From assembly GCA_038204535.1 (NCBI GenBank), contig JBBRCW010000001.1:14619-78618 (forward strand): a stretch of 64,000 bases of DNA, given 5' to 3'. The notes beneath the pieces are model-generated. The model did no database searches. It had not been told where the DNA came from and saw nothing but the letters and a program-made list of their open reading frames with translations. Below, piece after piece: positions 2 to 31,100 of this stretch. Source of the stretch: Chitinophagales bacterium (GTDB lineage Bacteria; Bacteroidota; Bacteroidia; Chitinophagales; Chitinophagaceae). Made by a program: the position numbers and the translations under genes. Positions within the stretch are counted from its first letter, which is position 1, and the number at the start of each line of letters is the position of its first letter.

Positions 2-580
2 GCCACCGTTGAAGACAAGATGCGCAATGCCATGTATCGCACCGAAAAAACCAGGAAACTGGAGCAGGAGAACCATAGTTCATACAACGAATTTTTACAG
101 TCGCTGCACATAAAAGTAACCACCAGGCCCATAGAAGAACGGGATATTGACAGGGCATTGCAATTGGGGCTGCGTACCAACCAGTTTAATATGAATGGCA
201 TCAGGCCCGAAAGGGAACTGATTAAAAGCCATATATTAAGCGAACAACGGCTGGGATGGATGATAGACGTGGCCGACCGCTTTGGTGACTATGGCACAGT
301 TGGATTGCTGCTGGGCACACATAATATGGCTACCTTACAATTGCAAACATTTTTATTGAGTTGCAGGGTGCTGGGCAGAGGCGTTGAAAAAATCATATGG
401 CAAAACGTTCATCAATATTGCGTAACTCATTCGTTGAACGATATAATGCTTCGGTTTCAGACAACTTCAAAAAATAAGCCCTTTGAAATTTTTTTAGCAT
501 CCTCAGGGGTGCAGTGGAGCAACGACAGCCAAAATTGGCATTCAACAGTTAAATATTCTATAGAAGAAATTGGGATTTAA
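2..580 (+). CDS. fkbH: FkbH-like protein (HAD-IIIC glyceryl transferase/phosphatase with C-terminal GNAT-like domain), 5'-truncated by the window edge
   Basis: The frame is open from base 2 (ATVEDKMRNAMYRTEKTR resembles the FkbH T.ED..R..MY..E..R motif), so the ORF-track start at 20 is internal. FkbH C-terminal motifs present: QLGLRTNQFN, DRFGDYGTVG, FLLSCRVLGRGVE. Stop at 578-580, 3 nt before the next ATG. Confidence 0.85.
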   Translation, partial: ATVEDKMRNAMYRTEKTRKLEQENHSSYNEFLQSLHIKVTTRPIEERDIDRALQLGLRTNQFNMNGIRPERELIKSHILSEQRLGWMIDVADRFGDYGTVGLLLGTHNMATLQLQTFLLSCRVLGRGVEKIIWQNVHQYCVTHSLNDIMLRFQTTSKNKPFEIFLASSGVQWSNDSQNWHSTVKYSIEEIGI

Positions 581-15500: not shown

Positions 15501-18388
15501 CCGAAGAAACCAATAAGACTATTCTTGAAGCGGTAAATGCTCCCTTTAATTTGTATGCCGACCAAATGCTTAGGGCAGGGATCATCCAGGCCAATGAAAA
15601 CGAAAACCTGCTTTGGGTGGTGGTGCATCATATAGCCGCCGATGGCTGGTCGATGCCGATATTAATAAAAGAGGTCGTAACGTTTTATAATGCATTTATA
15701 AACGGACAAACTTTCGAACTTTCGCCCTTGCCTGTTCAATATGCAGATTATGCTATTTGGCAGCGAAACTATTTCGATACTCCGGCACTTCATAGAAAAC
15801 TGGCTTACTGGAAACAACAGCTTGAAGATGTGACTGCGCTTGACCTGCCGGCAGATCATAGCCGCCCGGCGATGTTGTCGGGTAAGGGAGACACTTACAC
15901 ATTTACTGTAGAGCAACCAATGGTTGATGCTTTAAATAAAATCAGCCTGCAGCACAATAGCACGTTGTATATGTTGTTATTATCCGCGTTTAAGGTGTTG
16001 TTATTCCGCTATACGGGCCAGGGAGATATTTGCATTGGCGGTACCGTAGCCAACCGCACTCAGCCCGAACTTGAAAATCTTGCAGGCTTCTTTGTAAATA
16101 CAATTGCTTTACGCGATCAGCTTACAGCAGACATGCTGTTTTCAGGCTTATTGCAGCAAGTGAAAAACACTTTACTACAGGCCTACGATAACCAGGAGGT
16201 ACCTTTTGAAAAAGTTGTGGAAGAAACAGTGAGTGTGCGAGACATGAGCCGCAGTCCGTTGTTCCAGGTTATGTTTGCTTTACAAAATGAAGAAAGAACA
16301 GCGGCGCCCCTGTTAGAAAATCTGGAAATCTCAGCGGAAAATATCCCACAAAATACCGCTAAGTTCGAGTTAACCTTCAACCTTGCCGAAACAGGGAACG
16401 GAATGTACGGTACTATTGAGTATAGTACCGATCTGTACCTAAGAGAAAGAATGGAAGCGATGACCGGGCATTTTCTCCAGATTTTGCAATCGGTAGTTTT
16501 AGATCCCGGTCAGTCTATATCAGATTTAACCATCTTAACTAAAGACGAAGAACAGCAAATCCTTACTCAGTTTAACGAAACCCATGACGCTTTTACCGGC
16601 CCTTCAACCTTTATAGAATTTTTCGACAGGCAGCTGCTGGCAAGGCCCAATGATGTTGCCCTGGTTTTTGGAGAGGATAAAATAACTTATGGCGAACTGA
16701 ATAAAAGATCGGCCCTGCTGGCTGATTATCTTACTTCAAGGGGTGTTGCCAAAGAAACGCTGGTGCCGGTTTGTTTGTATAGAAGTGCGGACCTGGTGGT
16801 GGCAATGGTTGCTATTTTAAAAGCGGGCGGCGCTTATGTGCCCATCGATCCCCATTACCCTGCCGAAAGAATTGAATACATGTTGCGCGACACCGGAGCA
16901 ATGCTTGTTATATCAAATAAAAAGGCCGCCGGCGAATTGCCCCGCAATATTGACCTGGAGAAAATATTGATGGATGAAGTGGATTTAAACATTGTCACTT
17001 TGCCTGGCAATCAGACGGTATCCATATCTCCCAATCAGTTGGCTTATGTCATTTATACCTCTGGATCTACCGGCAGGCCAAAAGGCGTAATGATAGAACA
17101 TGCCTCGCTGGCAAATCTTATCCATTGGCATATTAAAGAGTACTGGTTAACCCCTCAAACCATCAGCACTGCTATGGCCGGTGTAGCCTTTGATGCGTTC
17201 GGCTGGGAAATTTTCCCATATCTCGCCGCAGGCGCAACCATTCATATATTAGATGATGATGGGGGGCTTTTGCCTGAAAAGCTGGTTAAAATATTTAATG
17301 CTGAAGGTATTACGCATAGTTTTATTTCTACCGCGCTGGTACCCGAATTTGTTGAACGGTCAAAAGGCAATTTGGCTGCCCTGCAAATGTTATTAACGGG
17401 CGGAGATAAATTGCCACCGGTTGATATTTCGGGTCTGCACTACCGGTTGATCAACAACTATGGCCCCACCGAAAATACTGTAGTGGCAACCCGTTTTGTT
17501 TTGCAGGCATCAAATTATCAGCAAACGCCCCTCATCGGATCACCCATTAGTAACACCAGTTTATTTATTCTGGATGAGAATGACCATTTACTCCCAATCG
17601 GTGTGCCCGGTCAATTATGTATAAGCGGGGCACAGGTAGCGAGGGGTTACCTTCACAATGCAACTTTAACCAGTCAAAAGTTCATCAATAACCCATATAG
17701 GAGCAGCCTGGGCGATGTTTTGTATAAAACAGGCGACAAATGCAGGTGGACAAAAGATGGAAATATTGAATTTTTGGGCAGGCTCGACGACCAGGTTAAA
17801 ATAAGAGGTTACCGGATTGAATTGGGCGAAATTGAAAGTTGTGTGTTACAATCTGGTCTGGTTCAGCAAACACTCGTTTTGGTAAACGACAACGGAAAAA
17901 ATGAAAAACGGCTGGTGGCATATATCGTAGCCGAAAAAGAAGTTGATACGCAATTGCTGATTGGCTATCTTCAAAAATTTCTTCCCGATTATATGATACC
18001 AAGGCTTTGGGTGCCTTTAGAGGCTTTTCCCTTAAATAGCAATGGAAAAATAGATAGAAAAGCCTTGCCCGATGTTGAAAAGGCAGGCACGTCTGAAACG
18101 CCGTTTGTTGCGCCTGAATCTAAAACAGAAATTCAGCTTGCTGACCTTTGGCAGGAATTATTGAAGGTGGAAAAGATTGGCATAAACGATAACTATTTTG
18201 AGGCAGGGGGCCATTCGCTGCTCGCTATGCGGTTGATTGCCGACATTCAGAAAACGTTTGGAATGGAGATAGCGGTAAAAGAGATTTTCGAATTTACCAC
18301 TATCAGAGAGCTTGCGAGGTTCCTTGAAGTAAAAATGGCTGCTCAAAAAACGGATACCATCAATGAATTTGATGAGATAGTGATATAA
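584..18388 (+). CDS. NRPS subunit 1 (5934 aa): T0-[C-A1-T]-[C-A2(Asn)-T]-[C-A3(Ala)-T-E]-[C(DCL)-A4-T]-[C-A5(Leu)-T]
   Basis: N-terminal carrier FFKVGGNS (Ser codon 785-787). Five HHxxxDG C domains, five A domains (YTSGSTG, YGPTE, YRTGD/YKTGD, NGK/SGK.D). T motifs GGHS/GGDS. One E domain (HHLAVDGVSW, EGQGRE). Manual codes: A1 DAYVVAAVCK, A2 DATKVGEVGK, A3 DLFNNALTYK, A4 DAEHIGEVTK, A5 DAWFLGNVVK. Confidence 0.97.
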   Translation: MSESKKPAVRTGKDIFNLVRSKQNEGQVNVIPEPAGEVQIALMTIWKGILPGAGFTTSDDFFKVGGNSIKAVQLASQASRHFNISVELTDIFLNPTITGQEIFISEKNHQSTIVAAISVQSRNGNIPLSYNQQWLWFADKFEDSVEYHLAEVLQLKGKINYEALHFAFNRLITRHEVLRTIYTEYEGVPFQKVMGPDEFKIDQENGFLYQADEERLNEFIDGEIGKPFDLSKDYPIRALLIAKGNFEHLLVINMHHIASDGWSMSIIVKEAIENYNGFISGKLDNKEPLKIQYADYAIWQRDFLQTKSLKDKLEFWTKKLEGVTAIDLPADFSRPAVKTKKGAVKHFLIDNDLTDQVRKLGNQEGSTLFMTLMAAFNVLLHKYSGQNDLCVGTPMANRLQNQTENLVGFFTNTIAFRSRVDPRQSFSAFLTSIKQTALQAYSHQEVPFEKVVEAVVKDRDISRSPLFDVVFILQNTPDIEEIKLIDAEVKHTTHHSYQVKYDLTFTVTEMPDGLDFLVEYRSDLYTSGRIDKMMDHFIHLLKCIVNAPQELISKYKIVTPAEEDQILHEFNSPSAFTPQNVVEVFEQQVENAPGNIALTFNNLSYSYAELNQKANRLARFLRAKGVTTETLVPICLERSTEIIVAILGILKAGAAYVPIDPAYPVDRIQYMLDDIKATVVLVSLETVDAIPHLPAIDVLDISSSHSEIDEFSPENPKVDIKPDNLAYIIYTSGSTGKPKGVMLEHKGVVNLAKSQADNLRLKPGLKTLQFASYGFDASCYEIFNTLLSGGQLVIPKKEDLLSASQFESFINLHKVDVAVLPPSFLQVMKNNIGTISTIVSAGEPINPDTCKFLQSRDIRMINAYGPTENTVCTTLTDNPVLENDIITIGKPIANVQVRIVDKNNDLCSIGINGEMCIAGAQVARGYFNRPDLSKEKFVKDWFNKDEDQLMYRTGDIGRWLPDGSIEFIGRMDDQVKIRGYRIELGEIENVLQQCEGVELCTVIAGEDKLGDLQLVTYIESDGVLTRQQVTEYLQTSLPEFMVPGIIVFLPKMPLTISGKIDKKSLPDPSSVELTDTEFQAPQNPLQQKLSEIWMELLEIDRLGINDNFFELGGHSMLAMRMGAAIRRQLNADLPVKAIFQHPTIASLSKIIEQFKELAPLPAIIPGDRPGRIPLSFSQARLWFIHQLHGTNPYHIPAVLRLNGKLNIDALNQALQSVVDRHHALRTIVLEDEGRPYQVIQSSKKWKLMLVNDPDLSDEGKLKDYIHQQVTRVFDLSKDYMLRARLVELNSEEHILILTVHHIAADGWSMPVIVKEIVALYQHFAYGAVASLPVLKVQYADYAIWQNQFLTGEVLENRLAYWTKVLEDVPPLQLPLDYKRPPVQSTNGAVTEMVFPVEVLNGLKLLGKQQYATLFMTLLSAFKVLLYRYSGQQDICVGTSVANRQHEETEGVVGFFVNNIALRSQVIGNESFVDLLSNVNTSVLDAFQYQDVPFEKVVDAVVHEREMSRNPIFQVLFVLQNTPEIPAITLPGLQMSPLDLEHTTAQLDMIFNVKESAEGLHLSVEYCTDLFAVETIQRMIANFGVLLHSVTKNPSSKIDQLELFTEVETNKLLSEFNNTNAALGIENTVVDLFNAQVSRVPNNIALIYADESITFSELNERSNQLAGYIVSKGILVGDIVPVCMHRGFDMLVAIWAILKAGAAYAPIDPEYPAERIQFIAGDTKAKLIICNEDSILNLDLLQAVEQVNLDRLQNTLSGFPTHFTTMAKPGQLAYIIYTSGSTGTPKGVAIQHCSLSNYLLNGSTNYVNRSSGGTGSFLSLSFTFDASITSLFMPSIAGKTLVLSANTGVKVFDDENFLAHAPFDFLKITPAHLELLKAVDDSYLTNWFTRKLVIGGEALLPGHIDHFIKEDINVQVINEYGPTEAAVGCSTYSFFTVTDKDMIKNSISIGKPIDNVKLSILGPSGTLMPIGAAGEICIAGQGLSSGYLNQPELTSEKFIADPFGKSAKSKIYKTGDYGRWLPDGNIEYIGRIDDQVKVRGYRVELSEIENVLLKSGLVKQAAVIVKQDKENNKRLAAYVVCDDTEELEQVKEYSIRVLPEHMLPSFWIAVNSMPLTISGKIDKKALPEPVDNSQPEKEIEDAPLSELNNKLADIWKDLLELDEIGINDNFFNLGGDSLLAVRVVAAIRKKLQAGLEINAIFDHPTIAGLSSVIEGDKNDFLLPPIVPADRPKNIPLSFSQERLWVIHQLEGSVQYHLNTVLSIDGEPELAALNDALHQIVSRHEILRTVYRQQDGKPYQVIMSAGDITLKSIDRSFNNISDAELNQLILEETSQPFDLATDYMIRASLVKINMARFVLIVTLHHIASDGWSNNIFIKEVTECYNSFKQKKKASLPALPIQYADFAIWQRANLQGDLMGQKIAFWKTYLQNVEPLQLPADYQRPAMQSFRGAVIPFSISSQIKEKLQNISKQHDATLFMTLLSAFYILLKEYSGQQDITVGTPVANRKQQEVESLIGFFVNTLVLRTRVDNDLSFTSLLLQVKGDTLKAFEHQDLPFEKVVDAVVSERDMSRNPLFQVMFVYQEDVRQNKHVLNDLSVAVVQPQQDTSKFDLSFFINESDGDLECFVEYCTDLYSHDTVVRMISHFTNLLQNIALKSDQRIGSLSLLSPNEQHQLLHEFQGRHMALKQESMVSLFEQQVALSLDKPAIVSGERSITYNELNALSNRIGRYLQSLGVKAGSFVPVNMERSIEMVVALLGVLKAGAAYVPIDKTYPLQRVAYMIKDCGASIALCNSSTSSQLIDISGITVVEIDNNAAIGLQKSDNTRQAISQNDLAYVMYTSGSTGQPKGVMIEHRSVSDFLQWCHQEFGQSDVETVYGGTSINFDLSVFEIFYSLTSGKTLRLLQNGLEAARYLPGDQKVLLNSVPSVIESLLKENTDLRNVTVLNMAGEPVSAFIQQHLDQENIEVRNLYGPTEDTTYSTVYRMRKGQPLLIGKPIANSYIRIVNPQLQLLPVGITGEICIGGAGLARGYLNRHDLTNEKFINDPFSSEADALLYKTGDVGRWLPDGNIEYLGRIDDQVKIRGYRIELGEIENVLQQNETISQAAAVAITDNNGSKRLAAYVVPGPGFNKEKLELWLAQRLPDYMVPHLWMQLERLPLNQNGKIDRKALPAIEPAESSPKRYTAPTTQTEIQLAAIWGELLGKEQVGVDDNFFGLGGDSILTIQAVSRANRLAYHLHPRDIFKHQTIRRLSKALADNHAKAITGEQGQLQGIAGLLPIQHNFLESDQPEPSHYNQSVLLNINKNVSKHMLRQVVRLLVQQHDALRFRYFKNDGIWQQEYGQAPGELFIEDLRSSGDVPAALDQIANQYQQSLNIEKGGLVRMVWIQMPGEVNSEERIVNNEERIMNSEERIVNNEERIMNSEERIVNSEERIVNNEERALVNEESSSLIPQPNSFSNRQLTTDNSPLTTHHSPLTTHNSLTAHQKNRLLIIIHHLAVDGVSWRLLLEDLEVLLTAAASGQQAILPTKTSSYRQWYQALEQYGQSSSLLKQKEYWHQAASRQSLQITDTKYEGPILVKDLGNYKTSLDAGETSLLLQQVPKVYHTGINDLLLAALARAFQQLLKTNTLLIGLEGQGREDISAVIDTSHTVGWFTSLYPVLLNIENCINHDQLIKAVKEQLRAVPDKGLSYGVLKYINHDKALKGKEQYDLIFNYLGQLDNVTGNSKWFSVARENSGENRSGETEVFEKISLAAQVLEGQLELHWSYSTKHFNAQTIQNLAGVFVGHLAAIISHCQKQEEIAGAVYTPSDYGIEKEVSYPELDAFLQTGVNGQPISRQIESIYRLSGLQQGMLFHSLYHPGGAYIEQFTCSLPAEVNLEAFEKSWQAVIERHTILRSSFWFDALSIPVQAVMKQAVLQITQIDLRQKSIEEQAAAIFTFESEDRTRGFDFKQAPLMRLVLLHTTNGYRLVWTYHHLLIDGWSMPVLFQEFLKAYDQLSAGQQLPAQPIDHYEDYIRYIEGINKDEEESYWKNYLKGVDGPTLLPFISALAGRNKAGGIFETIQWNADEALQTAVHHFAQKNRITVNTIMQGIWAYLLSQYTGKPNVVFGIIVSGRPNDLPEVEQRAGLYINTLPLAAHIENADTIADWLQRMQQEQINSLAYQYTPLANLQAWAKIPGDFFDSILIFENYPVSKLLTDTHWGLKVTDARMNEQTNYPLTIAIHDSGQLQFSFSYNTQLLAEQYVHNIQAHFKRVLAQVVQNEATAIADLQLLSKTEEEKLLGSYNPTSAYYPNDKTITALFEEQAARTPENVAVVFEGKHYTYEQINKRANQVAHCLKNKGVTAETLVPICLERSVEMIVGLLGIMKAGGAYVPIDLDYPLDRIRFILKDTAATLLVTSGEVADRLHSEVSIEVIKIDSDQPHIYNEPETNLPAIAGGNNLAYIIYTSGSTGIPKGVMIEHSCVVNLAMSQIREFGIDESEKILQFSSYAFDASVEQIIIALFTGAALILVDKETLTDTGRLIALIEREKVTHVHATPSFLETVTPAKYGHLKRVIAGGEQCPLVLAQSWGKLVTFYNEYGPTETSVTNIEHKYSPDNDLDTLAIGRPISNTPVYIVNTDGQLAPEGVVGEIWIGGSGVARGYLNRAELTEEKFIANPFDKQENARVYKTGDYGRWSANGYLEYYGRIDEQVKIRGYRIEPGEIEKVLQQSGLVKQAVVVVSESSTGNKQLVAYVVAGEKAFEQKLAQDYLFGRLPAYMVPQVWIEIEKIPLSANGKVDKSALPSADDLMADSNLKVLPRNATEATLATIWQNILGTDQPSVLSNFFELGGHSLLAMRLLSAIRRQFNAELGIKEIFTHPTIAQMAELLKTVSAGSDVTPIVQVDPKPENIPLSFGQERLWFIDKLEGTTQYHIPVLLRLKGTLDRTLLQKAFEKIIERHHVLRTVLAENAGSPFQVVKEATDFDLQFADGAGYSTEETNKTILEAVNAPFNLYADQMLRAGIIQANENENLLWVVVHHIAADGWSMPILIKEVVTFYNAFINGQTFELSPLPVQYADYAIWQRNYFDTPALHRKLAYWKQQLEDVTALDLPADHSRPAMLSGKGDTYTFTVEQPMVDALNKISLQHNSTLYMLLLSAFKVLLFRYTGQGDICIGGTVANRTQPELENLAGFFVNTIALRDQLTADMLFSGLLQQVKNTLLQAYDNQEVPFEKVVEETVSVRDMSRSPLFQVMFALQNEERTAAPLLENLEISAENIPQNTAKFELTFNLAETGNGMYGTIEYSTDLYLRERMEAMTGHFLQILQSVVLDPGQSISDLTILTKDEEQQILTQFNETHDAFTGPSTFIEFFDRQLLARPNDVALVFGEDKITYGELNKRSALLADYLTSRGVAKETLVPVCLYRSADLVVAMVAILKAGGAYVPIDPHYPAERIEYMLRDTGAMLVISNKKAAGELPRNIDLEKILMDEVDLNIVTLPGNQTVSISPNQLAYVIYTSGSTGRPKGVMIEHASLANLIHWHIKEYWLTPQTISTAMAGVAFDAFGWEIFPYLAAGATIHILDDDGGLLPEKLVKIFNAEGITHSFISTALVPEFVERSKGNLAALQMLLTGGDKLPPVDISGLHYRLINNYGPTENTVVATRFVLQASNYQQTPLIGSPISNTSLFILDENDHLLPIGVPGQLCISGAQVARGYLHNATLTSQKFINNPYRSSLGDVLYKTGDKCRWTKDGNIEFLGRLDDQVKIRGYRIELGEIESCVLQSGLVQQTLVLVNDNGKNEKRLVAYIVAEKEVDTQLLIGYLQKFLPDYMIPRLWVPLEAFPLNSNGKIDRKALPDVEKAGTSETPFVAPESKTEIQLADLWQELLKVEKIGINDNYFEAGGHSLLAMRLIADIQKTFGMEIAVKEIFEFTTIRELARFLEVKMAAQKTDTINEFDEIVI
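10751..11035 (+). repeat. In-frame bipartite tandem-repeat insertion in E domain 1 (about 95 aa)
   Basis: Seven copies of a 21-nt unit (gtgaatagtgaagaacgaata-type, encoding (V/M)N(S/N)EERI), a spacer, then 7-nt repeats actcacc/actcaca/actgaca (LTTHHSP-type). Confidence 0.95.
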
Positions 18389-18515: not shown

Positions 18516-21500
18516 TTGAAGAAAGCGATCGACATATTGTATTTAGCAAGGCAGGCCGGTGTTGAAATATTACTCAATGGCAACGATCTGAATGTGCGCA
18601 TTCCGAAAAACAAAACGATTGATAAGGATATTATTGCTGGTATCAGGGCCAATAAAGAGGCCATCATCAATGTGTTAAGAAACAACGTTTTGGGCAGCGG
18701 TGCCGAAGAAGACAAAATACAGCCATATGATAAAGCTGCTATTCCCTTTGTTCCGCTGTCTTTTAGCCAGGAGAGGTTGTGGTTTATCCATCAAATGGAG
18801 GGCAGCCTGCAGTACCACCTTACAAAACAATTAATATTAAAGGGAAAGGTTGACGCTGATGCCTTGAACCATGCACTGAAAAATGTGCTGGAGAGGCATG
18901 CGATTTTACGCACAGTTTTGCGCGAAAATAGCGGCAAACCTTATCAGCATGTGCTCGATTCCGCCGACTGGAAAATGGATGTGATTGATCTTTTCGCCGA
19001 AAACAACCCCGAATTTGTAAAGAAAGCTGTCGCCGCCCGGTCAAATCTGCCTTTCGATCTAAGCAACGATTATTTGATGCGGGCCTCATTGTTCAGGCTG
19101 AATGAAACAGAACACCTGCTTACATTAACAATGCACCACATTGCCGCCGACGGATGGTCTTTTCCAATAGTTGTAAGAGAGATCATTGAATTGTACCAGC
19201 GCTATCTAACAGGCAATTTGGAGCCCTTAGGTGCTTTGCCGATTCAGTTTGCCGATTATTCCATTTGGGAACGCAGGCAATTGACCAAAGAAGTGCTTGA
19301 TAAAAAACTGGAATACTGGAAAGAAAAATTGAAAAGCATAACACCTTTACAAATACACACTGATTTTGTAAGGTCTTTGGTAAGAAATGCAAAAGGAGCA
19401 TCGGTCAGTGGATCCATAGATAACGACCTGTTAAAACAATTGGTTAAGCTGGCCAATCAGCATGGCTGCACTTTGTACATGCTGATGCTTTCAGTTTTTA
19501 AAGTGCTTTTATATAGACTGAGCAACCAGCAAGATATATGTGTTGGTGCGTCTATTGCTAACCGCAGCCGTGACGAGATCAAAGATCTGGTCGGCTTTTT
19601 TGTAAATACGCTTTCATTCAGAAGCGAGGTTAATGGAACAATGCCGTTTACTGAATTACTTCAGCAGGTAAAGAAAACAACCCTGGAGGCATTTCAGCAC
19701 CAGGATGTTCCGTTTGAAAAAGTAGTGGAGGCGGTTCTTAAAGAAAGAGATACATCGCGTACACCTGTTTTTCAGGTGATGCTGGTGCTGAACAATACAC
19801 CTGCTACTCCGAATATTAATCTGGGCGGGCTCCAAATAGTTGCCGCCGAAGAAGAAGTACCGCTTTCAAAATTCGATTTTACTTTCTTTTTGGCGGAGAC
19901 CGCCAATGGCCTGAATATAAATGCGGTGTATAGCACTGATTTGTTCAGGCACGATACTGTTGTGTCAATGCTTGATCGGTATGTTACGCTCCTGCGATCC
20001 GTGGTAAATGAGCCGGGCTCGCGGGTTGGGCTGTTACGAATGATGACGCCTGCCGAAGAGAAAACTATCGTACAGCGTCTCAAGGCTCCTGCATTTACGA
20101 TGCCTTTAAATAAAAGCGTTGTCAATTTATTTGAAGAACAGGTAGTAAGGTCCCCCGACAGGCTGGCGGTAGTATTTGAAGATGAAGAATGCTCGTTTGC
20201 CGAAATGAATGCCAGGGCAAATAAACTGGCCGGGTTTTTAAATCAGCGGGTGATGCATCCCCAATCGCTTATTCCGGTATTTTTAGATCGGTCGGTCGAT
20301 ATGGTAATAAGCATTTTGGCCATACTAAAGGCAGGTCATGCATATGTGCCTATAGAAGTTGATCTTCCTGAAGGCAGGATTGACTTTTTACTTAAAGACC
20401 TTGATGCGCATTTCATAGTCAGCAACACTATGAATGCCGCCAAACTAAGTGGCCGAAAAGATATTGAAATAATCAGATCGGATGATAATGCCATCGATGC
20501 GCTATCAGCCGATAATTTGCAATTGGAAGTTACCGCCGGCCACCTGGCGTATGTAATTTATACCTCTGGCTCTACGGGCAAACCCAAAGGTGTAATGATC
20601 GAACATGGCAGCATTGTGGATTATGTATGGGGACTGAATGCAGCCATCAGGATAGACGAATGCAAGTCTTACGCGCTGGTTTCGTCGTTTGCTACAGACC
20701 TTGGCAACACCGTTGTGTTCAGCTCATTACTTTTAGGAGGAACCCTTCACATCCTGTCTAAGGAAAGTGTTGCAAGCAGCCATTACCTCTCCGGTTATTT
20801 TTCCAAACACCAGATTGACTGCCTTAAAATAGTCCCTTCGCATTGGAAAGCTTTGAGCCAGGATGGTGAATTATTGCTGCCAAAAAAACGCTTGATTTTT
20901 GGAGGAGAGGCATTGTCAGGACGAATAATTGAAGACATCAGGGCAGCTGATCCTTCCTGTAATATTATCAATCATTACGGACCTACCGAAACAACCATTG
21001 GCAAATTATTGCATCGCGTAGATCTCAACCAAAATTACACCGATACCATTGCCATAGGTAAGCCATTTGGAAATACCCGCGTGCTGGTACTAAGCAGCCA
21101 AATGCAGGTTTGCCCGGCGGGTGTGCCCGGCCAGTTGTATATAGCAGGAAGTGGCGTGGCAAGAGGTTATTTGAACAACGAAGAACTTACCCGGCAAAAG
21201 TTTATACAATACATTTCCGGCGAACAATCAATCAGAATGTACGCAACCGGCGATTTGGTGAAAATGTTGCCCGACGGAAACATTTTGTTTTTAGGCAGGG
21301 TTGACGACCAGGTAAAAATAAGGGGCTACCGCGTAGAGCTCGGGGAGATAGAAAGCGTGCTCCGAAAAATGCCTGGCATTCATTTATGCGCGGTAACTGC
21401 GCCAGCCGATACGCTGGGTGTGCGAAATTTGATAGCATACATCCAGCCGGAAAAATCACTTACGCAGCAGCAGGTTTTGGAATACCTGCAGGCGCTTTTG

Positions 21501-24500
21501 CCTGACTATATGCTGCCCGCCGAAATTGTTTTCTTAGAAGAGATGCCTTTAACCATCAACGGAAAGATTGACAAAAAAGCCTTGCCCGATCCCGGGCAGT
21601 ATACCCATAAACAGCAAAGTTATACACCTGCCCGCAACAGCACAGAACAACGTCTCTGCCAGCTTTGGCAGCATATATTGGAAGTGGAGCCTATTGGTAT
21701 TCACGATGACTTTTTTGCCCTCGGAGGCCATTCGTTGCTGGCTGTCAGATTGATTTCACTTATAAGAAAGGAGTTCGATATTGAAATACCTATCAGTCAT
21801 ATTTTCGATTATCCTACCATAGCCCTGCTGTCAGAACAGTTGGTTAGCGCAAAAGCAGGTGTGGTTTTGCCTCCTGTTTCTGCGGTAGATCCGCGGCCCA
21901 AACATATTCCGCTCTCTTTTAGCCAGGAACGGCTTTGGTTTATTGATAAGTTAGAAGGCAGCCTTGCTTACCATGTTCCTGCTGTGTTGCGTTTAAAGGG
22001 AAAACTGCAGACAGATGCACTCGGTTTGTCGCTCAAAACCATTGTTAATCGTCACGAGGTTTTACGTACTTTTTTTATTGAGCAGGAAGGCCAGGTTTAC
22101 CAGCAGGTAAAAGAAAAAGATCAATGGCATTTGCAATTGGTGGATGGAACAGCATTTATTGGCGATGATACGAGCCTGCGCGGGTATGTGCAACAGTTAA
22201 TAACGTCGCCGTTCGATTTGTCTAAGGATGATATGTTACGGGCAACGCTCATCACAATCTCCGACGAGGAATTTGTATTAGTTATCACGGTGCATCATAT
22301 TGCCTCCGATGGATGGTCGCGTTCAATTATTGTTGATGAGCTGGCCAGCATATATAGCGACATTACAAACAACCAGCCGGTTCATTTATCACCCTTAACG
22401 GTGCAGTACGCGGATTATGCCATTTGGCAACGAAATTATATAAAGGACGACGTTCTGCAGAAACTGCTGCAATACTGGAAAGAAAACCTGGCTGGCACCG
22501 AAACACTACGGTTGCCTGTTAACCATCAGCCTGGTTCAGGCCAAAGTAAGTTAGGTGGCAGCGTTCCCTTTGAAATAGACAGCCAGTCGGTGGTCTCTTT
22601 GCACCGGTTAAGTCAGCAACAGGGCAGCACGTTGTTTATGACTTTGTTGGCTTGTTTTAAAGTGTTGTTATTCCGCTATACCGGTCAAACGGATATTTGT
22701 ATTGGAACACCCATAGCTGGACGGCAACATCAGGAACTGGAAAATCTGATCGGGTTTTTCCTCAATACATTGGTCATTCGCACTAACATTGATTCCAAAC
22801 AGTCTTTCATACAGTATTTGCAGCAGGTTCGTGCGGTAACACTGCAGGCATATGAGCACCAGCAAGTGCCCTTCGAGAAAATTGTGGAGGCGGTAGTTAC
22901 CCATCGCGATGTGGGAACAACACCTTTGTTTAATGTAATGTTTGTGCTACAGAATACACCCGATGTAAAAGTGCTGGTTCTGGGTGATGTTAAACTGACG
23001 GATGAAATGACAGACCTGCATGCCTTCCGGTACGAGCTGTCTATGTTTTTAACTGAAGCAAATGGCGTTATAACCGGATCCCTCGACTATGATGCCAGGT
23101 TGTATAGCAAGCAATGGGTTGAAACACTCGTGGGGCACTATATTCAATTAATTAAAGAAATAGCGGGCCAGCCGGATAAGTCAATTTCCGGCGTTCAGTT
23201 ATTGAGCCAGCAGCAAAAACAACATTTGCTTTTCTTATTAAATGAAACCGGTACCGCAGCACCGCAAGGCAAAACTATCATTCAGTTGTTTGAAGAAAGG
23301 GTTGCTGCCGGTCCGCACCAGGTTGCATTGATACACGGCAACCATTCGCACACTTTTCAAGAGATAAACCAGCGTGCCAATAGCCTGGCAAACCTGCTGA
23401 TTGAAAAGGGGGCAGGTGCCGGAACAATTGTGCCTGTTTATATTGAAAGGTCGGTGGAGATGGTGATCGGTTTACTGGCCGTTGCCAAAACAGGTGCCAT
23501 CTATGTACCGTTAGACCCCGACTATCCCGAAGAAAGGATACAGTATATTATCAATGACACCGAAGCACAGTTTGTGGTTACAAGCCAGGCATTGGCTCAT
23601 TACTTTGACAACGGGCAAAAAAGAACCATCATTGCCATACCTGAAGAATGGAAAAACGAAACTGATTGCAATAATTCATCGCCGGGCATCACGGCTGATT
23701 CTACTTTCTGTATGGTGTATACTTCCGGTTCAACGGGTAATCCAAAAGGAGTAAAACTCAGCAATGCAAATGTACTGAACCGCATCAACTGGATGAACGA
23801 TGCCTATCCTTTTACCCAGGGAGAAAGGGTTGCGCTTAAAACTTCCATAGGCTTTGTGGACCATATCAGCGAAATATTTTCGCCGTTGATATTTGGCATT
23901 ACCGGGGTAATTTTTAGTAAGAACGACTTGTTAGACATGGAACTTCTTTGCGAAAAATTATACAGCCACCAGGTGAGCCGCTGGGTGCTGGTTCCATCAT
24001 TATTAAGCGCCTTTATACAGCATATAAAAGACAACCCGATGTCGTTGCCGGCATTAAAGTATTTTACCAGCAGCGGCGAATTGCTCAGCGGCGAATTGGT
24101 GAAAGATTTTTACAAGGTTTTTCCAGCCGCCCATCATAAACTGCTGAATATTTATGGCTCCAGCGAAGTATCGGCAGACGTAACCTGTTACGATACAAGT
24201 GCAGATTTTATGGGTTATGGCAATGGTAATACAAATGCGGAGCTTTCAGAAAGCGGATATAAAGTGCCCATTGGTAAGCCCATTGCTAATTGCAGCATTT
24301 ACCTGGCAAATAAAGATATGAACCTTGTACCCCAGGGATGTTATGGCGAAATTTGTGTGGGCGGCGCACCGGTGGGCCAGGGATATTATAAGAATGAAGA
24401 ATTAAACCTCCAAAAATTTATAAACGATCCTTTTAATGGCAATGGAGGTAAGATATTTAGAACGGGCGATATTGGCCGCTGGCTGCCCGATGGCAATATT

Positions 24501-25118
24501 GAATATGCCGGCAGAATAGATGACCAGGTAAAAATTAGAGGCAATAGGGTAGAACCGGGCGAAGTGGAGAACGCCTTGATCGAAAGCGGATTGATTATAC
24601 AAGCGGCGGTAGTGGCTGGTAAAGACCAAAAGGGCAATAATTATTTGGTAGCCTATTTAGTTGCAAATGATTATAATAAACAGGCCCTGATAAGTGTTTT
24701 GCAAAAGAAAATACCGGCTTATATGATACCGGCCTTTTGGGTTCAGGTGGAATCTTTGCCTCTAACCCCCAGTGGTAAGATCGATAAAAAACAATTGCTT
24801 TCGTTACCTCTGCCGCAGCAATCGCAAAACGAATATATAGCCCCCCGTACTGCTACTGAAAAAGTATTGGCCGAAATTTGGCAGCACCTTTTGCATATTG
24901 AAAAGGTAGGTGCGGAGGATAATTATTTTGAATTGGGCGGGCATTCATTAATGATCGTAAAATTGGTCTCGGCTATCCGCAAACAATTTTCTATTACGGT
25001 TCCCCTGGCGGTCTTATTTCAGTTGAATACCGTTGCGGCATTAGCCGGTTATATTGATTGGGAGCTAAATTCTATTGGCCACGAGGAAACGGCAGCAATG
25101 GAAGTTGTAAAATTATAA
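18516..25118 (+). CDS. NRPS subunit 2 (2200 aa, TTG start): N-terminal docking domain-[C-A6(Asp)-T]-[C-A7(beta-amino-acid type)-T]
   Basis: TubC_N-like N-terminus (AIDILYLARQAGVEILLNGNDL...IRANKEAIINVL). C motifs HHIAADGWS and HHIASDGWS. A6 code DLTKIGHIGK (Asp type). A7 has FVDHISE and YGSSEVSAD (code VDSVTSIADK). Two GGHS carriers. Confidence 0.96.
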   Translation: MKKAIDILYLARQAGVEILLNGNDLNVRIPKNKTIDKDIIAGIRANKEAIINVLRNNVLGSGAEEDKIQPYDKAAIPFVPLSFSQERLWFIHQMEGSLQYHLTKQLILKGKVDADALNHALKNVLERHAILRTVLRENSGKPYQHVLDSADWKMDVIDLFAENNPEFVKKAVAARSNLPFDLSNDYLMRASLFRLNETEHLLTLTMHHIAADGWSFPIVVREIIELYQRYLTGNLEPLGALPIQFADYSIWERRQLTKEVLDKKLEYWKEKLKSITPLQIHTDFVRSLVRNAKGASVSGSIDNDLLKQLVKLANQHGCTLYMLMLSVFKVLLYRLSNQQDICVGASIANRSRDEIKDLVGFFVNTLSFRSEVNGTMPFTELLQQVKKTTLEAFQHQDVPFEKVVEAVLKERDTSRTPVFQVMLVLNNTPATPNINLGGLQIVAAEEEVPLSKFDFTFFLAETANGLNINAVYSTDLFRHDTVVSMLDRYVTLLRSVVNEPGSRVGLLRMMTPAEEKTIVQRLKAPAFTMPLNKSVVNLFEEQVVRSPDRLAVVFEDEECSFAEMNARANKLAGFLNQRVMHPQSLIPVFLDRSVDMVISILAILKAGHAYVPIEVDLPEGRIDFLLKDLDAHFIVSNTMNAAKLSGRKDIEIIRSDDNAIDALSADNLQLEVTAGHLAYVIYTSGSTGKPKGVMIEHGSIVDYVWGLNAAIRIDECKSYALVSSFATDLGNTVVFSSLLLGGTLHILSKESVASSHYLSGYFSKHQIDCLKIVPSHWKALSQDGELLLPKKRLIFGGEALSGRIIEDIRAADPSCNIINHYGPTETTIGKLLHRVDLNQNYTDTIAIGKPFGNTRVLVLSSQMQVCPAGVPGQLYIAGSGVARGYLNNEELTRQKFIQYISGEQSIRMYATGDLVKMLPDGNILFLGRVDDQVKIRGYRVELGEIESVLRKMPGIHLCAVTAPADTLGVRNLIAYIQPEKSLTQQQVLEYLQALLPDYMLPAEIVFLEEMPLTINGKIDKKALPDPGQYTHKQQSYTPARNSTEQRLCQLWQHILEVEPIGIHDDFFALGGHSLLAVRLISLIRKEFDIEIPISHIFDYPTIALLSEQLVSAKAGVVLPPVSAVDPRPKHIPLSFSQERLWFIDKLEGSLAYHVPAVLRLKGKLQTDALGLSLKTIVNRHEVLRTFFIEQEGQVYQQVKEKDQWHLQLVDGTAFIGDDTSLRGYVQQLITSPFDLSKDDMLRATLITISDEEFVLVITVHHIASDGWSRSIIVDELASIYSDITNNQPVHLSPLTVQYADYAIWQRNYIKDDVLQKLLQYWKENLAGTETLRLPVNHQPGSGQSKLGGSVPFEIDSQSVVSLHRLSQQQGSTLFMTLLACFKVLLFRYTGQTDICIGTPIAGRQHQELENLIGFFLNTLVIRTNIDSKQSFIQYLQQVRAVTLQAYEHQQVPFEKIVEAVVTHRDVGTTPLFNVMFVLQNTPDVKVLVLGDVKLTDEMTDLHAFRYELSMFLTEANGVITGSLDYDARLYSKQWVETLVGHYIQLIKEIAGQPDKSISGVQLLSQQQKQHLLFLLNETGTAAPQGKTIIQLFEERVAAGPHQVALIHGNHSHTFQEINQRANSLANLLIEKGAGAGTIVPVYIERSVEMVIGLLAVAKTGAIYVPLDPDYPEERIQYIINDTEAQFVVTSQALAHYFDNGQKRTIIAIPEEWKNETDCNNSSPGITADSTFCMVYTSGSTGNPKGVKLSNANVLNRINWMNDAYPFTQGERVALKTSIGFVDHISEIFSPLIFGITGVIFSKNDLLDMELLCEKLYSHQVSRWVLVPSLLSAFIQHIKDNPMSLPALKYFTSSGELLSGELVKDFYKVFPAAHHKLLNIYGSSEVSADVTCYDTSADFMGYGNGNTNAELSESGYKVPIGKPIANCSIYLANKDMNLVPQGCYGEICVGGAPVGQGYYKNEELNLQKFINDPFNGNGGKIFRTGDIGRWLPDGNIEYAGRIDDQVKIRGNRVEPGEVENALIESGLIIQAAVVAGKDQKGNNYLVAYLVANDYNKQALISVLQKKIPAYMIPAFWVQVESLPLTPSGKIDKKQLLSLPLPQQSQNEYIAPRTATEKVLAEIWQHLLHIEKVGAEDNYFELGGHSLMIVKLVSAIRKQFSITVPLAVLFQLNTVAALAGYIDWELNSIGHEETAAMEVVKL

Positions 25119-25125
25119 AGTTAAA

Positions 25126-28100
25126 ATGGTTAGCAAGGTTATTGACATATTGCAAAACGCAAGAAGCAAAGGAGTGATTGTCACTTTTGAGGATGGCGAG
25201 CTATTGGTAAAATTTGCCAAAGACCATGCTGTTTCTCCAGGCTTAATGGCCGAATTAAAAGAGAATAAACATGCCATCATTGATTTTTTGAGTAATGATA
25301 AATGGAAATCAACAAAAAACGATGCCCTTCAATTTCATATAAAACCGGCTGATAAAACTTTACTTACATGTTTACCATTATCGTTCAGCCAGGAGCGGTT
25401 GTTATTTATTGATGCGTTGGAAGGAACACTTCAATATCATTTGCCTGCTGTATTTAAAATATCGGGCAATTTAAATACAGGTTATCTTGAAAAGGCCTTT
25501 CGGCAAGTCGTAAATCGCCACGAAGTATTGCGTACCGTAATAGGTAAAACCAAAGAAACCTGGTGCCAGTTAATCAGCCCGCAAGACGAGTGGTTTTTAA
25601 ACAAGACCGATCTTGAAATAGATAGCCGGCAGGATGAAGCAATTGAAGAGGAGATTAAGAAGTTAATAGCAAAGCCTTTCGATCTGTATAAAGACCCTAT
25701 GCTTAGGGCAAACCTTGTTTACCTGGGCGCAGACGAATACCTGCTGGTAGTTGTGGTGCATCATATTGCTGCCGATGGCTGGTCGCTGGGTATTATAATG
25801 AGCGAAGTGGCTGAGATCTTTAACGCCTTGTACCTGCAAAAAGAAGCTCAGCTACTGCCATTGCCCATACAATTTGCCGACTTTGCCATTTGGCAGCGCA
25901 ACTACTTACAGGGCGATGTTTTAGAAAAAAAACTTAAATATTGGACTGATAAATTAAACGACGTCGCTCCCTTGCAACTGCCTGCCGATTTTGCACGACC
26001 GGCCATTCAAAGCACACGTGGAAATGCGGAAACTTTTGAAATTGATTCACCGCTGGTGACATCGCTGCAAAAACTTAGTATCCAGCAGAATAATACCCTT
26101 TTTGTAACCTTGCTTGCAGCCTTTAAATTGTTACTATTCCGGTATAGCAACCAGGCAGACATTTGCGTGGGGTCTCCCATTGCGGGCCGCCAACAAGACG
26201 AGCTGGAAAATTTGGTGGGGTTCTTTGCCAATACCGTTGCATTACGCTCTATTGTTGATCCTGAACTGTCGTTTGTTGATTGGATGCAGCTTGTAAAAAC
26301 AACTACACTGCAAGCTTTTGAACATCAGGAGGTGCCCTTTGAAAAAATAGTTGAAAAGGTAAACATCAAAAGAGACCTTAGCCGAAGCCCGGTTTTCCAG
26401 GTATTGTTTGCGTTGCAAAACATTGGCGGTGTTGCTGCAACGGGTTTAACAGGTGCGGTACTGACCGGCCTGTCTTTGCCGCATTCCACCTCGCGTTTCG
26501 AACTGAGTTTTAATTTAACGGAAACAGCCAATGGTTTACGTGTTACGGTAGAGTATTGTACCGATCTGTTTAAACGGCAGACAATTGTAAGAATGAGTAC
26601 GCATTTTCTGCAATTGCTTCATGAGGTGGTCAACAACCCCGCCCAAAAAATTGCGCATATTAACCTGTTGCCTGATGCTGAAAGGCAACAACTATTGCGT
26701 GATTTTAACAGCACCGAAAAAGCATTGCCAGGCATTCAAACCATATGCGGCATGTTTGAACAGCAGGTAGCTGCCACGCCCAATGCAATCGCCTGCGTAT
26801 TCGAAGACAGTCAAATTAACTATGCAGAATTGAATGGCCGCGCCAATCAACTGGCGCATTATTTACAATTTCGTGGTGTAGGGTCAGAAACCCTGGTGCC
26901 CATTTGTATTGAGCGGGGCATTTCTTTAATGGTGGGGCTTTTGGCCATATTAAAAACCGGTGCGGCATTTGTTCCGGTTGATCCCGAATTTCCGGCTGAA
27001 CGAATACAGTTTATGGTTGAGGATTCAGCTGCAAAATTGATAGTTACCAGCGCACAAAGCAGGGGCAGATTGCCGCAAACGAATACGGCAGCAATCATAG
27101 ATCTGGAAGCCCTTCAGGATACCTTAAACCAACAACCTGCAGAAAATCTTTCAACCGTGGTTTCACCCGGCAGCCTCGCTTATATTATTCACACTTCAGG
27201 TTCTACCGGTAAACCAAAAGGTGTAATGGTTGAGCATAGAAGTGTGGTGAACCTGCTGATGGCAATGGCAGAAAGAATAGATTTTAATGCTTGTTCTTCT
27301 TTTTTATCAGTCACTACCTACAGCTTCGATATTTGCTATCTCGAAGTTTTTATGCCTTTGGTATTCGGTGCCAAATTATTCATAGTACCCAGGCATGTTT
27401 CGGCCGATGGTTTTTTGCTACAAAATAGCCTTTCTAAATTTTCGCCTACCCACATGCAAGCCACACCTTCAACCTGGCAAATGTTAGTGAGCAGCGATTG
27501 GCAGAATAGTGGAGAAATGAAAATGTTAATCGGCGGGGAGGCGGTAAAGGAAGAGATAAAAGAAAGCCTGACCCGGCTGGGAAACGTCTGGAATGTTTAT
27601 GGCCCAACCGAGACAACCATTTGGTCGGCAACACAAAAACTAGAACAGGGCGAAAAGATTGTAATTGGTTCGCCAATCGACAATACACAAATTTATATTT
27701 TAGACCGCAATAATAACCTGGCAGGTATTGGACTGCCCGGCGAAATATGCATAGCCGGCATTGGCCTTGCCAGGGGATATTTAAACAGGCCCGATCTTAC
27801 CGCCGAAAGATTTGTAATAAATCCGTTGGCTGATGCCGGGGGAGCCATCATGTACAGAACCGGCGACCTGGGCAAATGGCTGCCCAACGGAACCATTGAA
27901 TACATAGAGCGTATAGACGACCAGGTAAAAATAAGGGGTTACCGGATAGAATTGGGTGAGATAGAAAATGTGCTGCAGCAAAGCGGGTTGGTTAAACAGG
28001 TGGTGGTAGCGGCCAAACAAGACTTTGCCGGCAACAATATGCTGGTGGGCTATTTTATCGCCGCCGGCAAAGTAGACAAAGATGAGTTGATTAGCTATCT

Positions 28101-31100
28101 AAAAGAAAAATTGCCGGAGTATATGGTCCCCGGCCTGTGGTACGAACTGGAAAGTTTTCCTTTAACACCCAATGGTAAAATTAACCGCAAGGCCCTGCCC
28201 GATGTTGATCTAAAGGGAATTTCGCAACAGGTATATTCAGCGCCGGCAAACGAACTTGAAATACAGCTTGCCAATATCTGGCAATCGTTTTTAGGGTTGG
28301 ATGCAATAGGTGTTCACGATAACTTTTTTGAGCTGGGCGGCCATTCTTTACTTGCTATGCAGGTGATAGCTTCCATTCGAAAAAATTTGGGGATAGAAAT
28401 TTCATTAAGGGAAATATTTATTCATTCAACCATTTTCGATCTGGCGAAAACCACAAAGCAAAAGAAAGATCAAACGGCGGTTGTCAAAATTACACTGGCG
28501 GAGCGCCCTCAACACATACCGCTTTCATTTAGCCAGGAGCGGTTGTGGTTTATTGATCGTTTAGAAGGAACGCTGCCATATCATCTGCCTGCTGTTTTGC
28601 GTCTTACAGGAAATTTAAATGCAGATGCTTTGGAGCAGGCATTTAAAACGGTGATTGCCAGGCACGAGATATTAAGAACCATTTACCTCGACGATCAGGG
28701 CCAGCCTTACCAGTTAGTAAAAGATACATCCGGATTTTTATTGGCTTATAATAAAGATTTGCGTAGCACCTTGCCACAAGACTGGTTATCGTTAATCGCT
28801 AACATTGTATCAAGGCCTTTCGATCTTACAAAAGATGATATGCTGCGGGGCGAATTAATACAGCTAAACGATCAGGAGCATTTACTGGTGGTTGTTTTGC
28901 ACCATATAGCGGCAGACGGCTGGTCAATACAATTGTTTGTTAGCGAGGTGGCATCCTTATACAAACAATACAGTACGGCACAGCCGGCAAACCTGCCTGC
29001 ATTGCCTTTTCAATATGCCGATTATGCCGTTTGGCAGCGTTCCTATTTGCAGGGTCACATCCTTGAAAACAAACTGGCATATTGGAAAAATAAATTAACC
29101 GGAACAGAACCATTGCAGCTTCCCATCGATCATGTACGACCGGTTGTTCAAACGTCGCTGGGCGGTGTAGAGAGCTATTCTTTGCCCGATGACCTGGTAA
29201 ACGGGGTTTGGAATATTAACCGCAAAAACGGGGTTACCACGTTTATATCTATACTATCGGTAATAAAAATATTATTACACAGGTATTGCAGCCAAAGCGA
29301 TATATGCATTGGAACGCCGGTGGCCAACCGCAACCTGCCGGGCCTCGAAGATTTGATCGGTTTTTTTGTAAATACACTTGCTCTGCGTACGCAGGTCGAT
29401 GCCGGCGATTCTTATGACCAGCTACTTCAGAAAGTTAAAACCACCGTATTAGAAGCTTTCGATTACCAGGAGGTTCCTTTTGAAAAAGTGGTTGAAGCCG
29501 TAGTTAAAAAAAGAGATCTCAGCCGCAGCCCCTTGTTCCAGGTGTTGTTTGTAATGCGTACCAGCAAAGGTGGGCAGGCTTTTGATACAGGCGAATTGCA
29601 GATAAGTAACGAACCTTTTGAGCAGTCTACGGCAATGTTCGATCTTATTTTTTACCTGACAGAAACCGGCACCGGCATGCACCTGGCCATAGAATACAGA
29701 AAAGATATTTTTAAGCCGGATACCATACAGCGCATGGTAATTCATTTTAATGAATTACTGACAGGTATTATAATGGATACGGGTCAAATGCTTGGCAATC
29801 TATCCATGCTTACCGGCGTGGAGAAAAGACAGCTATTAATTAATTTCAACGATACCGGTGCGGCTTATCCGGCAAACAAGCGAATAGAACATTTTTTTGA
29901 AGAACAGGTATTGCTTCAGCCAAACGCCACCGCGGTTGTTTTTAACGATGAAGAACTTACCTATAAACAACTGAATCAAAAGGCCAACCAATTGGCGCAT
30001 TATCTGCAGGGTAAAGGTGTTAAAGCCAATACCCTGGTGCCTTTATTTCTGGAGCGTGGTTTTAATATGGTGGTTGCCGTAATGGCAATATTAAAGGCAG
30101 GAGGTGCCTATGTTCCGGTCGATCCCGAATATCCCGCGGAAAGAATTGCATTTATGCTGCAAGAAGTGGAGTCGCCTTTTATCTTATCCACCCGGCAAAG
30201 CAAATCCTTGCTGCAGCCTATGACCAATGCGCAAATTATTGATCTTGACGAAGAAGAGGTTTTTGAAAAACAGCCCATATCCAATCCGATAAAAGAATAT
30301 GTGCCTAATGATATTGGATACATTTTGTACACCTCTGGTTCAACGGGCAGGCCTAAAGGAGCGTTTATGCCGGTTGGTGCACTGGTAAATTTGTTGCATT
30401 GGCAGCAACAGCAGTTTGCTCCCGGACATCGCAATGTGTTGCAATTTGCAACACTAAATTTTGATCCCAGCTTTCTTGAAATTTTTGGCACCCTGGGTTA
30501 TGGTGGTACTTTATTTTTAATTGATGGTGAACGCCGGAAAGATGTGGCCGAACTGGTAGCAGATTTTAAGCGATTCCGCATTACGCATTTTTATACGCCC
30601 TATGTGGTGTTAAAGGCCATTGCGGAGTATATGGGCGATAGAGGTGCTGAATTAACAGATATGAAAGAATATCTGGTTGCCGGTGAGCAGCTTAAAATGA
30701 ATGAAGAACTCATAAATTTTCTTCAAAAAAGCAACGCGGTTCTTACCAATCAATATGGCCCTACAGAGGGGCACGTCGTCAGTAGTTTTACATTCAGGCA
30801 ATATAGCAATGTGCCGTTGCTGCCACCCATAGGCAAACCCATTTATAATACGCAGTTATATATTTTAAATGATTGTTTGCAGCCGGTGCCTGTGGGTGTT
30901 ACCGGCGATTTATTTATTGGGGGAGTGCCGTCGCTGGCCGGATATATAAAACAGCCGAAATTAATGACTGAAAAATTCATTAACGATCCATTTAGTGATA
31001 TTGAAAATGCCCGGCTATATAAAACCGGCGATGTAGCAAAATGGTTGCCCGATGGCAACATCGATTTTTTAGGTAGAAAAGACGATCAGGTTAAAATAAG

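Follow-up and report, generated by a model that had tools for sequence, protein, structure and literature searches.

Results

The stretch of DNA analysed here (the window: 64,000 nucleotides, positions 14,619 to 78,618 of the forward strand of contig JBBRCW010000001.1, assembly GCA_038204535.1) comes from an uncultured soil bacterium of the Chitinophagaceae and holds most of an uncharacterised non-ribosomal peptide synthetase (NRPS) assembly line. The open reading frame list contains five co-directional NRPS genes (584-18388, 18516-25118, 25126-36453, 36468-44636 and 44663-53506) with, according to Pfam, 5, 2, 3, 2 and 2 adenylation (A) domains in that order and a terminal thioesterase at the end. 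Our subject is A7, the second A domain of the second gene (residues 1592-2088; 23289-24779, plus strand; Pfam AMP-binding and AMP-binding_C). The subunit that contains it (18516-25118, plus strand, 2200 amino acids) has the order C-A-T-C-A7-T by its open reading frame, translation and Pfam domains, where C is a condensation and T a carrier domain and the first A domain has an Asp code. A preliminary description of the locus had proposed that A7 selects a beta-amino acid, most likely beta-alanine (beta-Ala); our analysis suggests that A7 is probably a functional domain that activates beta-Ala or a similar small beta-amino acid.

Core A4 of A7 reads GFVDHISE (residues 1779-1786; 23850-23873, plus strand). 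In a gap-free HMMER alignment with FDISVAE of LgrA module 2, the Val of FVDHISE pairs with Asp235 and its Asp with residue 236, and a MAFFT alignment with the 13 sister A domains of the window gives the same register, which bears out the displacement of the Asp by one residue noted in the preliminary description. The Asp235 that binds the alpha-amino group in canonical alpha-amino-acid domains is replaced by Val (23856-23858, plus strand), followed by Asp236 (23859-23861) and Ser239 (23868-23870). Core A5 is present in the altered form described, NIYGSSEVSADVT (24147-24185, plus strand), with Ile322, Ala330 and Asp331 and with YGSSE in place of YGPTE. The code VDSVTSIADK, derived by hand in the preliminary description, is matched exactly by both alignments. 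All codes were read from a MAFFT alignment of the 14 A domains of the window, anchored on the core motifs and checked against the Asp code DLTK..; A7 alone lacks Asp235, and the remaining 13 codes begin with D.

Core A3 (YTSGSTGNPKG, 23718-23750, plus strand), core A10 (SGKIDKK, 24771-24791, plus strand, including the Lys517-equivalent K2088 at 24777-24779) and cores A6, A7 and A8 are intact, as is the phosphopantetheine-attachment Ser in the FELGGHSL motif of the carrier domain T7 (24927-24950, plus strand). With all of these elements preserved, the sequence of A7 gives no sign of inactivity.

Between cores A5 and A6, directly 5' of VPIGKP (24264-24281), A7 carries a lengthened loop, SADFMGYGNGNTNAELSESGYK (24198-24263, plus strand). 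From the YG of core A5 to VPIGKP there are 37 residues, against mostly 22-26 among the relatives described below, 29-30 in L002-L006 and 51-52 in P0005 and P0008. The excess of 13-14 residues over the norm agrees with the roughly 15 extra residues reported earlier. An AlphaFold2 model of A7, built on 24 clade members, is confident apart from this loop (mean predicted local distance difference test score (pLDDT) 88.8; predicted template modelling score 0.88), and the stretch where pLDDT drops under 50 coincides with YGNGNTNAELS (model residues 311-321; 24216-24248). The extra segment is therefore predicted to be a disordered surface loop; it varies in length among the Chitinophagales relatives without conserved sequence, and a role in specificity is not indicated.

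We then placed A7 among its relatives. A search of the A7 region against 5.8 billion proteins returned the protein carrying A7 as a singleton, with the nearest relatives among the matches listed being 44-50% identical. Scanning the 120 listed proteins for an F-x-D motif yielded 16 further domains with the same code skeleton, including VDCVTSIADK, VDWVTSIADK, VDWVSSIADK (from a Ferruginibacter metagenome-assembled genome, MAG), VDAVVSLADK and VDWVVSLADK. The invariant columns of their alignment (K-T..F.D...E, R..V-P.LL, SGE and N.YGS.E...D) are all present in A7, as are the clade-specific motifs KT..F.D...E, TR.VLVPSLL, SGE and N.YGS.E...D, and D236 is invariant in 15 of 15 and in 24 of 24 aligned members. 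The clade alignment was used to scan one genome per prokaryote species and found at least 599 stretches, 581 of them confirmed; among species-representative genomes the clade thus numbers at least 581 loci. The best 80, from which taxa and codes were taken, lie in Chitinophagales MAGs (Ferruginibacter and Segetibacter, 58-60% identity), Acidobacteriota, Nostocales and other cyanobacteria, Chloroflexota and, in small number, Proteobacteria. The great majority of the codes follow VDW[VI]xS[IL]A[DN]K; two relatives (L015 and L063) carry VDWVISLADK verbatim and 76 of the 80 have near-identical codes.

A FastTree phylogeny of 452 A domains (the 15 of this cluster, all domains of the 120 matched proteins and 73 locus domains) unites 91 shifted-Asp domains in one clade that contains nothing else (support 99), with Ser-type domains (DVWH...) as its sister group. 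A7 lies within an eight-member Chitinophagales subclade (support 100). Every one of the 91 carries Asp236 preceded by a hydrophobic residue at position 235. In a quick IQ-TREE analysis of 84 rows, all 36 shifted domains fall on one side of a branch (Shimodaira-Hasegawa-like approximate likelihood ratio test, 85); these include four Pseudomonas domains (LDT/IDT...S.GDK) that FastTree places just outside the 91-member clade. Asn replaces Asp331 in 18 Nostocales members and marks a Nostocales subclade with the code VDW[IV]IS[LF]ANK (L026, L028, L042, L044, L047, L050-L052, L054, L057, L060, L062, L068-L071, L075, L077 and L081). The clade can therefore dispense with Asp331; Asp236, by contrast, is present throughout. 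We know of no product of these Nostocales domains.

It is most improbable that A7 is inactive or skipped, or that it is an ordinary alpha-amino-acid domain with drifted motifs. Nothing beyond the departure from FDxS and YGPTE speaks for such a reading, and it runs against the intact cores and carrier Ser and the confident model. Since the substitutions are invariant across the 91-member clade in many phyla, the sequence comparison indicates that they are under selection and do not reflect chance or drift. By the same comparison, A7 is a member of a known, widespread shifted-Asp class with a slightly altered pocket. What is individual in A7 is one unusual pocket residue, Ser239, together with the longer loop. 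At position 239, 79 of the 91 members have Trp, 6 have Ala, 3 have Pro and 2 (P0003 and L003, the nearest relatives) have Cys; A7 is the only one with Ser.

Four domains with published codes share the skeleton of A7: CrpD-A1 from the cryptophycin pathway (GDAVFSLADK), KasE-A1 from kasichelin (LDGTISLADK), SurC-A1 from surugamide F (LDTTVSLADK) and CdeI-A1 from cadaside (LDTTVSLGDK; PMC12305651, supplementary information (SI) Fig. S44). These domains load methyl-beta-Ala/beta-aminoisobutyric acid (BAIBA), and KasE loads beta-Ala too (PMC12305651). In common with A7 they have D236, S301, A/G330, D331, K517 and a small residue at 239, which is Ala, Gly or Thr in the methyl-beta-alanine domains and Ser in A7. 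Residue 235 is Val in A7 but Leu or Gly in the four, and V278 is shared with CrpD, the other three having Thr278. The skeleton xD...S.[A/G][D/N]K holds for A7 when it is set against the published codes and 95 clade members.

Based on these codes, A7 may have been retuned for a substituted small beta-amino acid, for example BAIBA (3-amino-2-methylpropionate), 3-aminobutyrate or isoserine, with more room beside the bound beta-alanine skeleton once Trp239 is gone, although we consider this retuning rather unlikely. The uniqueness of Ser239 in a clade dominated by Trp, the small residue at this position in the published methyl-beta-alanine domains and the Cys239 of the nearest relatives would fit such a change. 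On the other hand, position 239 aside, A7 has the same code as the Trp-bearing Ferruginibacter relative L002 (VDWVTSIADK); all of the four published BAIBA domains but CrpD have Thr278, and their nearest look-alikes in our sample are the four Pseudomonas LDT/IDT domains that FastTree places outside the 91-member clade; and KasE, with Gly239, accepts plain beta-Ala as well.

Among previously described systems, beta-alanine-activating A domains occur in bleomycin synthetase, exochelin FxbB, destruxin synthetase, Drosophila Ebony and vertebrate ACSF4-U26. The preliminary description had compared A7 with VDWVISLADK, reported as the bleomycin beta-Ala code (Du et al. 2000). With this code A7 agrees at 7 of 10 positions, both having Val235/Asp236, Ser301, Ala330, Asp331 and Lys517, and differs by Ser for Trp239, Thr for Ile299 and Ile for Leu322. 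Compared with beta-Ala domains of the bleomycin group, A7 also has a loop after core A5 that is 13-14 residues longer, and its host belongs to the Chitinophagaceae. Full-text literature searches for VDWVISLADK and related 10-mers and 6-mers found nothing relevant. The general VD...ADK pattern attributed to beta-Ala domains thus holds at the level of the skeleton seen in the four published beta-Ala/BAIBA domains and of the bleomycin code found verbatim in two relatives.

A second kind of beta-amino-acid domain is the VinN type (VinN, IdnL1, CmiS6 and HitB), stand-alone enzymes of macrolactam pathways that select a beta-amino acid via an Asp binding the beta-amino group, keep Asp at the 235-equivalent position beside a bulky Phe, Tyr or Thr and have a beta13-beta14 loop one residue shorter (PMC11253843). 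A7 differs on each point: it has Val at 235, shows no deletion between YGSSE and positions 330/331 relative to the other A domains and forms part of a C-A-T module. When run on the PDB, a profile built from the A7 clade scores only 30-45 bits for HitB, IdnL1 and CmiS6 against 90-102 bits for Ser/Gly-type NRPS A domains; these are its best structural matches, and no PDB chain has the shifted Asp. Sequence comparison places A7 in the beta-Ala/BAIBA class and not in the VinN class.

The codes of the four Pseudomonas domains (P0031, P0066, P0113 and P0114; locus L001; LDTVVSFGDK or IDTVVSLGDK) closely resemble the BAIBA codes of SurC and CdeI. A Dab-type (2,4-diaminobutyrate), syringomycin-like specificity was considered for them and rejected, as the genes around P0066 do not make up a syr cluster and the codes match published BAIBA codes. 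This bears on the proposal that A7 takes another non-alpha substrate needing a deep acidic residue, namely gamma-aminobutyrate (GABA), or 2,3-diaminopropionate (Dap) or Dab in an unusual pose. The presence of two acidic pocket residues, Asp236 and Asp331, and a pocket enlarged by W239S would suit such a substrate. We nevertheless regard it as improbable: no characterised domain of the clade is known for these substrates, the suspected Dab-type domains of Pseudomonas turn out BAIBA-like, Asp331 is dispensable in the clade, and no sbnA/B-like or ectB-like genes adjoin the cluster.

We also assessed the supply of the putative precursor. PanD (PF02261), named in the preliminary description as a gene to look for, was not found in this 95%-complete genome. 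It is absent from all 12 same-genus genomes too and present in 6 of 8 genomes from other families of the order; missing genus-wide, it reflects a lineage trait and not an assembly gap, and its absence says nothing on A7. This genus (13 genomes) must make beta-alanine by another way. The genome contains panC, and the cell therefore needs beta-alanine; it also encodes a dihydropyrimidinase equivalog, which scores 588 bits against a cut-off of 393, and two amidases of the carbamoylase family above their cut-off. Judged from family membership, these are consistent with the reductive pyrimidine route as a source of beta-Ala (and of BAIBA from thymine), and because panC, dihydropyrimidinase and carbamoylases are present, a supply of beta-Ala from primary metabolism is plausible. 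The same enzymes would yield not only beta-Ala from uracil but also BAIBA from thymine, which suits a retuned A7; against it, no methyltransferase, aminomutase, glutamate mutase or decarboxylase gene adjoins the cluster, and no dedicated precursor genes are found there.

A group II decarboxylase dependent on pyridoxal phosphate (533 amino acids; 3.7-kb contig C485, 1407-3005) was tried as a substitute for PanD and rejected: it scores about 100 bits on the 2,4-diaminobutyrate (DABA) decarboxylase and PanP models, far under their cut-offs, and a 56%-identical copy occurs in only 1 of 20 relatives. That relative lacks PanD, yet the enzyme is not shared by the PanD-less relatives in general and shows no anticorrelation with PanD.

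Finally, we considered A7 in the context of the whole assembly line. Contig C1, on which the window lies, extends 14.6 kb further upstream and holds one more NRPS gene (C1:9070-15198), the last 192 codons of which correspond to window positions 2-580. It has the architecture C-A-T-C, with the A-domain code DLFNNALTYK (A0), followed by a HAD/FkbH-like tail of about 570 amino acids with a DCDNTLWKG motif; the subunit after it seems to begin with a carrier domain. The tail probably represents a glycerate unit in a line with 15 A domains. Owing to this gene, A7 is the eighth A domain of the line, and the earlier label of module 7 is one too low (two if the FkbH unit is counted). Ahead of the upstream gene lie a type II thioesterase, a CmlA-like diiron beta-hydroxylase (CmlA_N match, 304 bits) and an Sfp-type phosphopantetheinyl transferase (C1:6648-8998 and 3005-3637). 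The hydroxylase suggests a beta-hydroxylated residue in the product, perhaps Asp or Asn.

The codes of the window are, in order, A1 DAYVVAAVCK, A2 DATKVGEVGK, A3 DLFNNALTYK, A4 DAEHIGEVTK, A5 DAWFLGNVVK, A6 DLTKIGHIGK, A7 as above, A8 DILQLGVIWK, A9 DPLYLAQVVK, A10 as A2, A11 as A3, A12 as A5, A13 as A6, and A14 DGYFLGVVYK. We take A6 to be Asp-like and A8 Gly-like by the established codes (Stachelhaus 1999), and the position of A7 between Asp and Gly given in the preliminary description stands. Codes are repeated along the line: A2 and A10 are Asn-like, A3, A11 and A0 Ala-like, A5 and A12 Leu-like, and A6 and A13 Asp-like. Asn-Ala-X-Leu-Asp and Asn-Ala-Leu-Asp blocks thereby flank betaAla-Gly-X in the predicted peptide, which suggests an internal duplication of a module block. 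Three codes have no obvious match, those of A1 (about 2770-3900), A4 (13950-14350) and A9 (30460-30780). Chitinopeptin, known from Chitinophaga clusters, was rejected as the product, for its residue order differs and it contains no beta-Ala.

Discussion

The assignment of A7 to a small beta-amino acid draws its support from membership of the shifted-Asp clade and from the code skeleton of the four published beta-Ala/BAIBA domains; the nesting and the skeletons together support, at class level, the original suggestion of a beta-amino acid that would most likely be beta-Ala. As to the exact substrate, we lean slightly towards plain beta-alanine. Several points weigh against this assignment. The Trp239 that is typical, though not universal, in the clade is Ser in A7, and the four published domains with a small residue 239 load methyl-substituted beta-alanine, so that the substrate of A7 may not be plain beta-Ala. 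The trees contain no characterised W-type sequence. The missing PanD would count here as well, were it not a trait of the whole genus.

In the mechanism that we propose, Val occupies position 235 of A7, where ordinary A domains bind the alpha-amino group, and the acidic residue at 236 could contact an amino group that lies one carbon more distant from the carboxylate. With Lys517 and the ATP-binding cores unchanged, A7 would form the beta-aminoacyl-AMP and load it onto the next carrier domain, and the beta-residue would come after the Asp added by the preceding module and before the Gly added by the next subunit's first module; in the preliminary description such a residue was suggested to form a flexible hinge. 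The substrate is inferred, and so is the way in which Asp236 would read the beta-amino group, since no clade member has a solved structure.

Our assignment of A7 settles a position of the predicted product that could not otherwise be predicted, in a line that has 15 A domains and an FkbH (glycerate) unit. It also reveals the large size of the shifted-Asp beta-alanine clade, whose hundreds of loci are common in Acidobacteriota, Nostocales and Chitinophagales, groups from which, to our knowledge, no beta-Ala peptides have been described. Beyond these points, the annotation of the cluster is routine for an NRPS. The natural W239S/C/A variants offer cheap test cases for selection between beta-Ala and methyl-beta-Ala. 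A tentative extension is that W239S, perhaps together with the lengthened disordered loop, has retuned A7 to a rare beta-residue drawn from pyrimidine catabolism with no dedicated supply genes. If this were true, the domain would show how a single natural substitution can switch selectivity between beta-Ala and methyl-beta-Ala, and a Chitinophagaceae lipopeptide would bear a rare beta-residue originating from the breakdown of pyrimidines.

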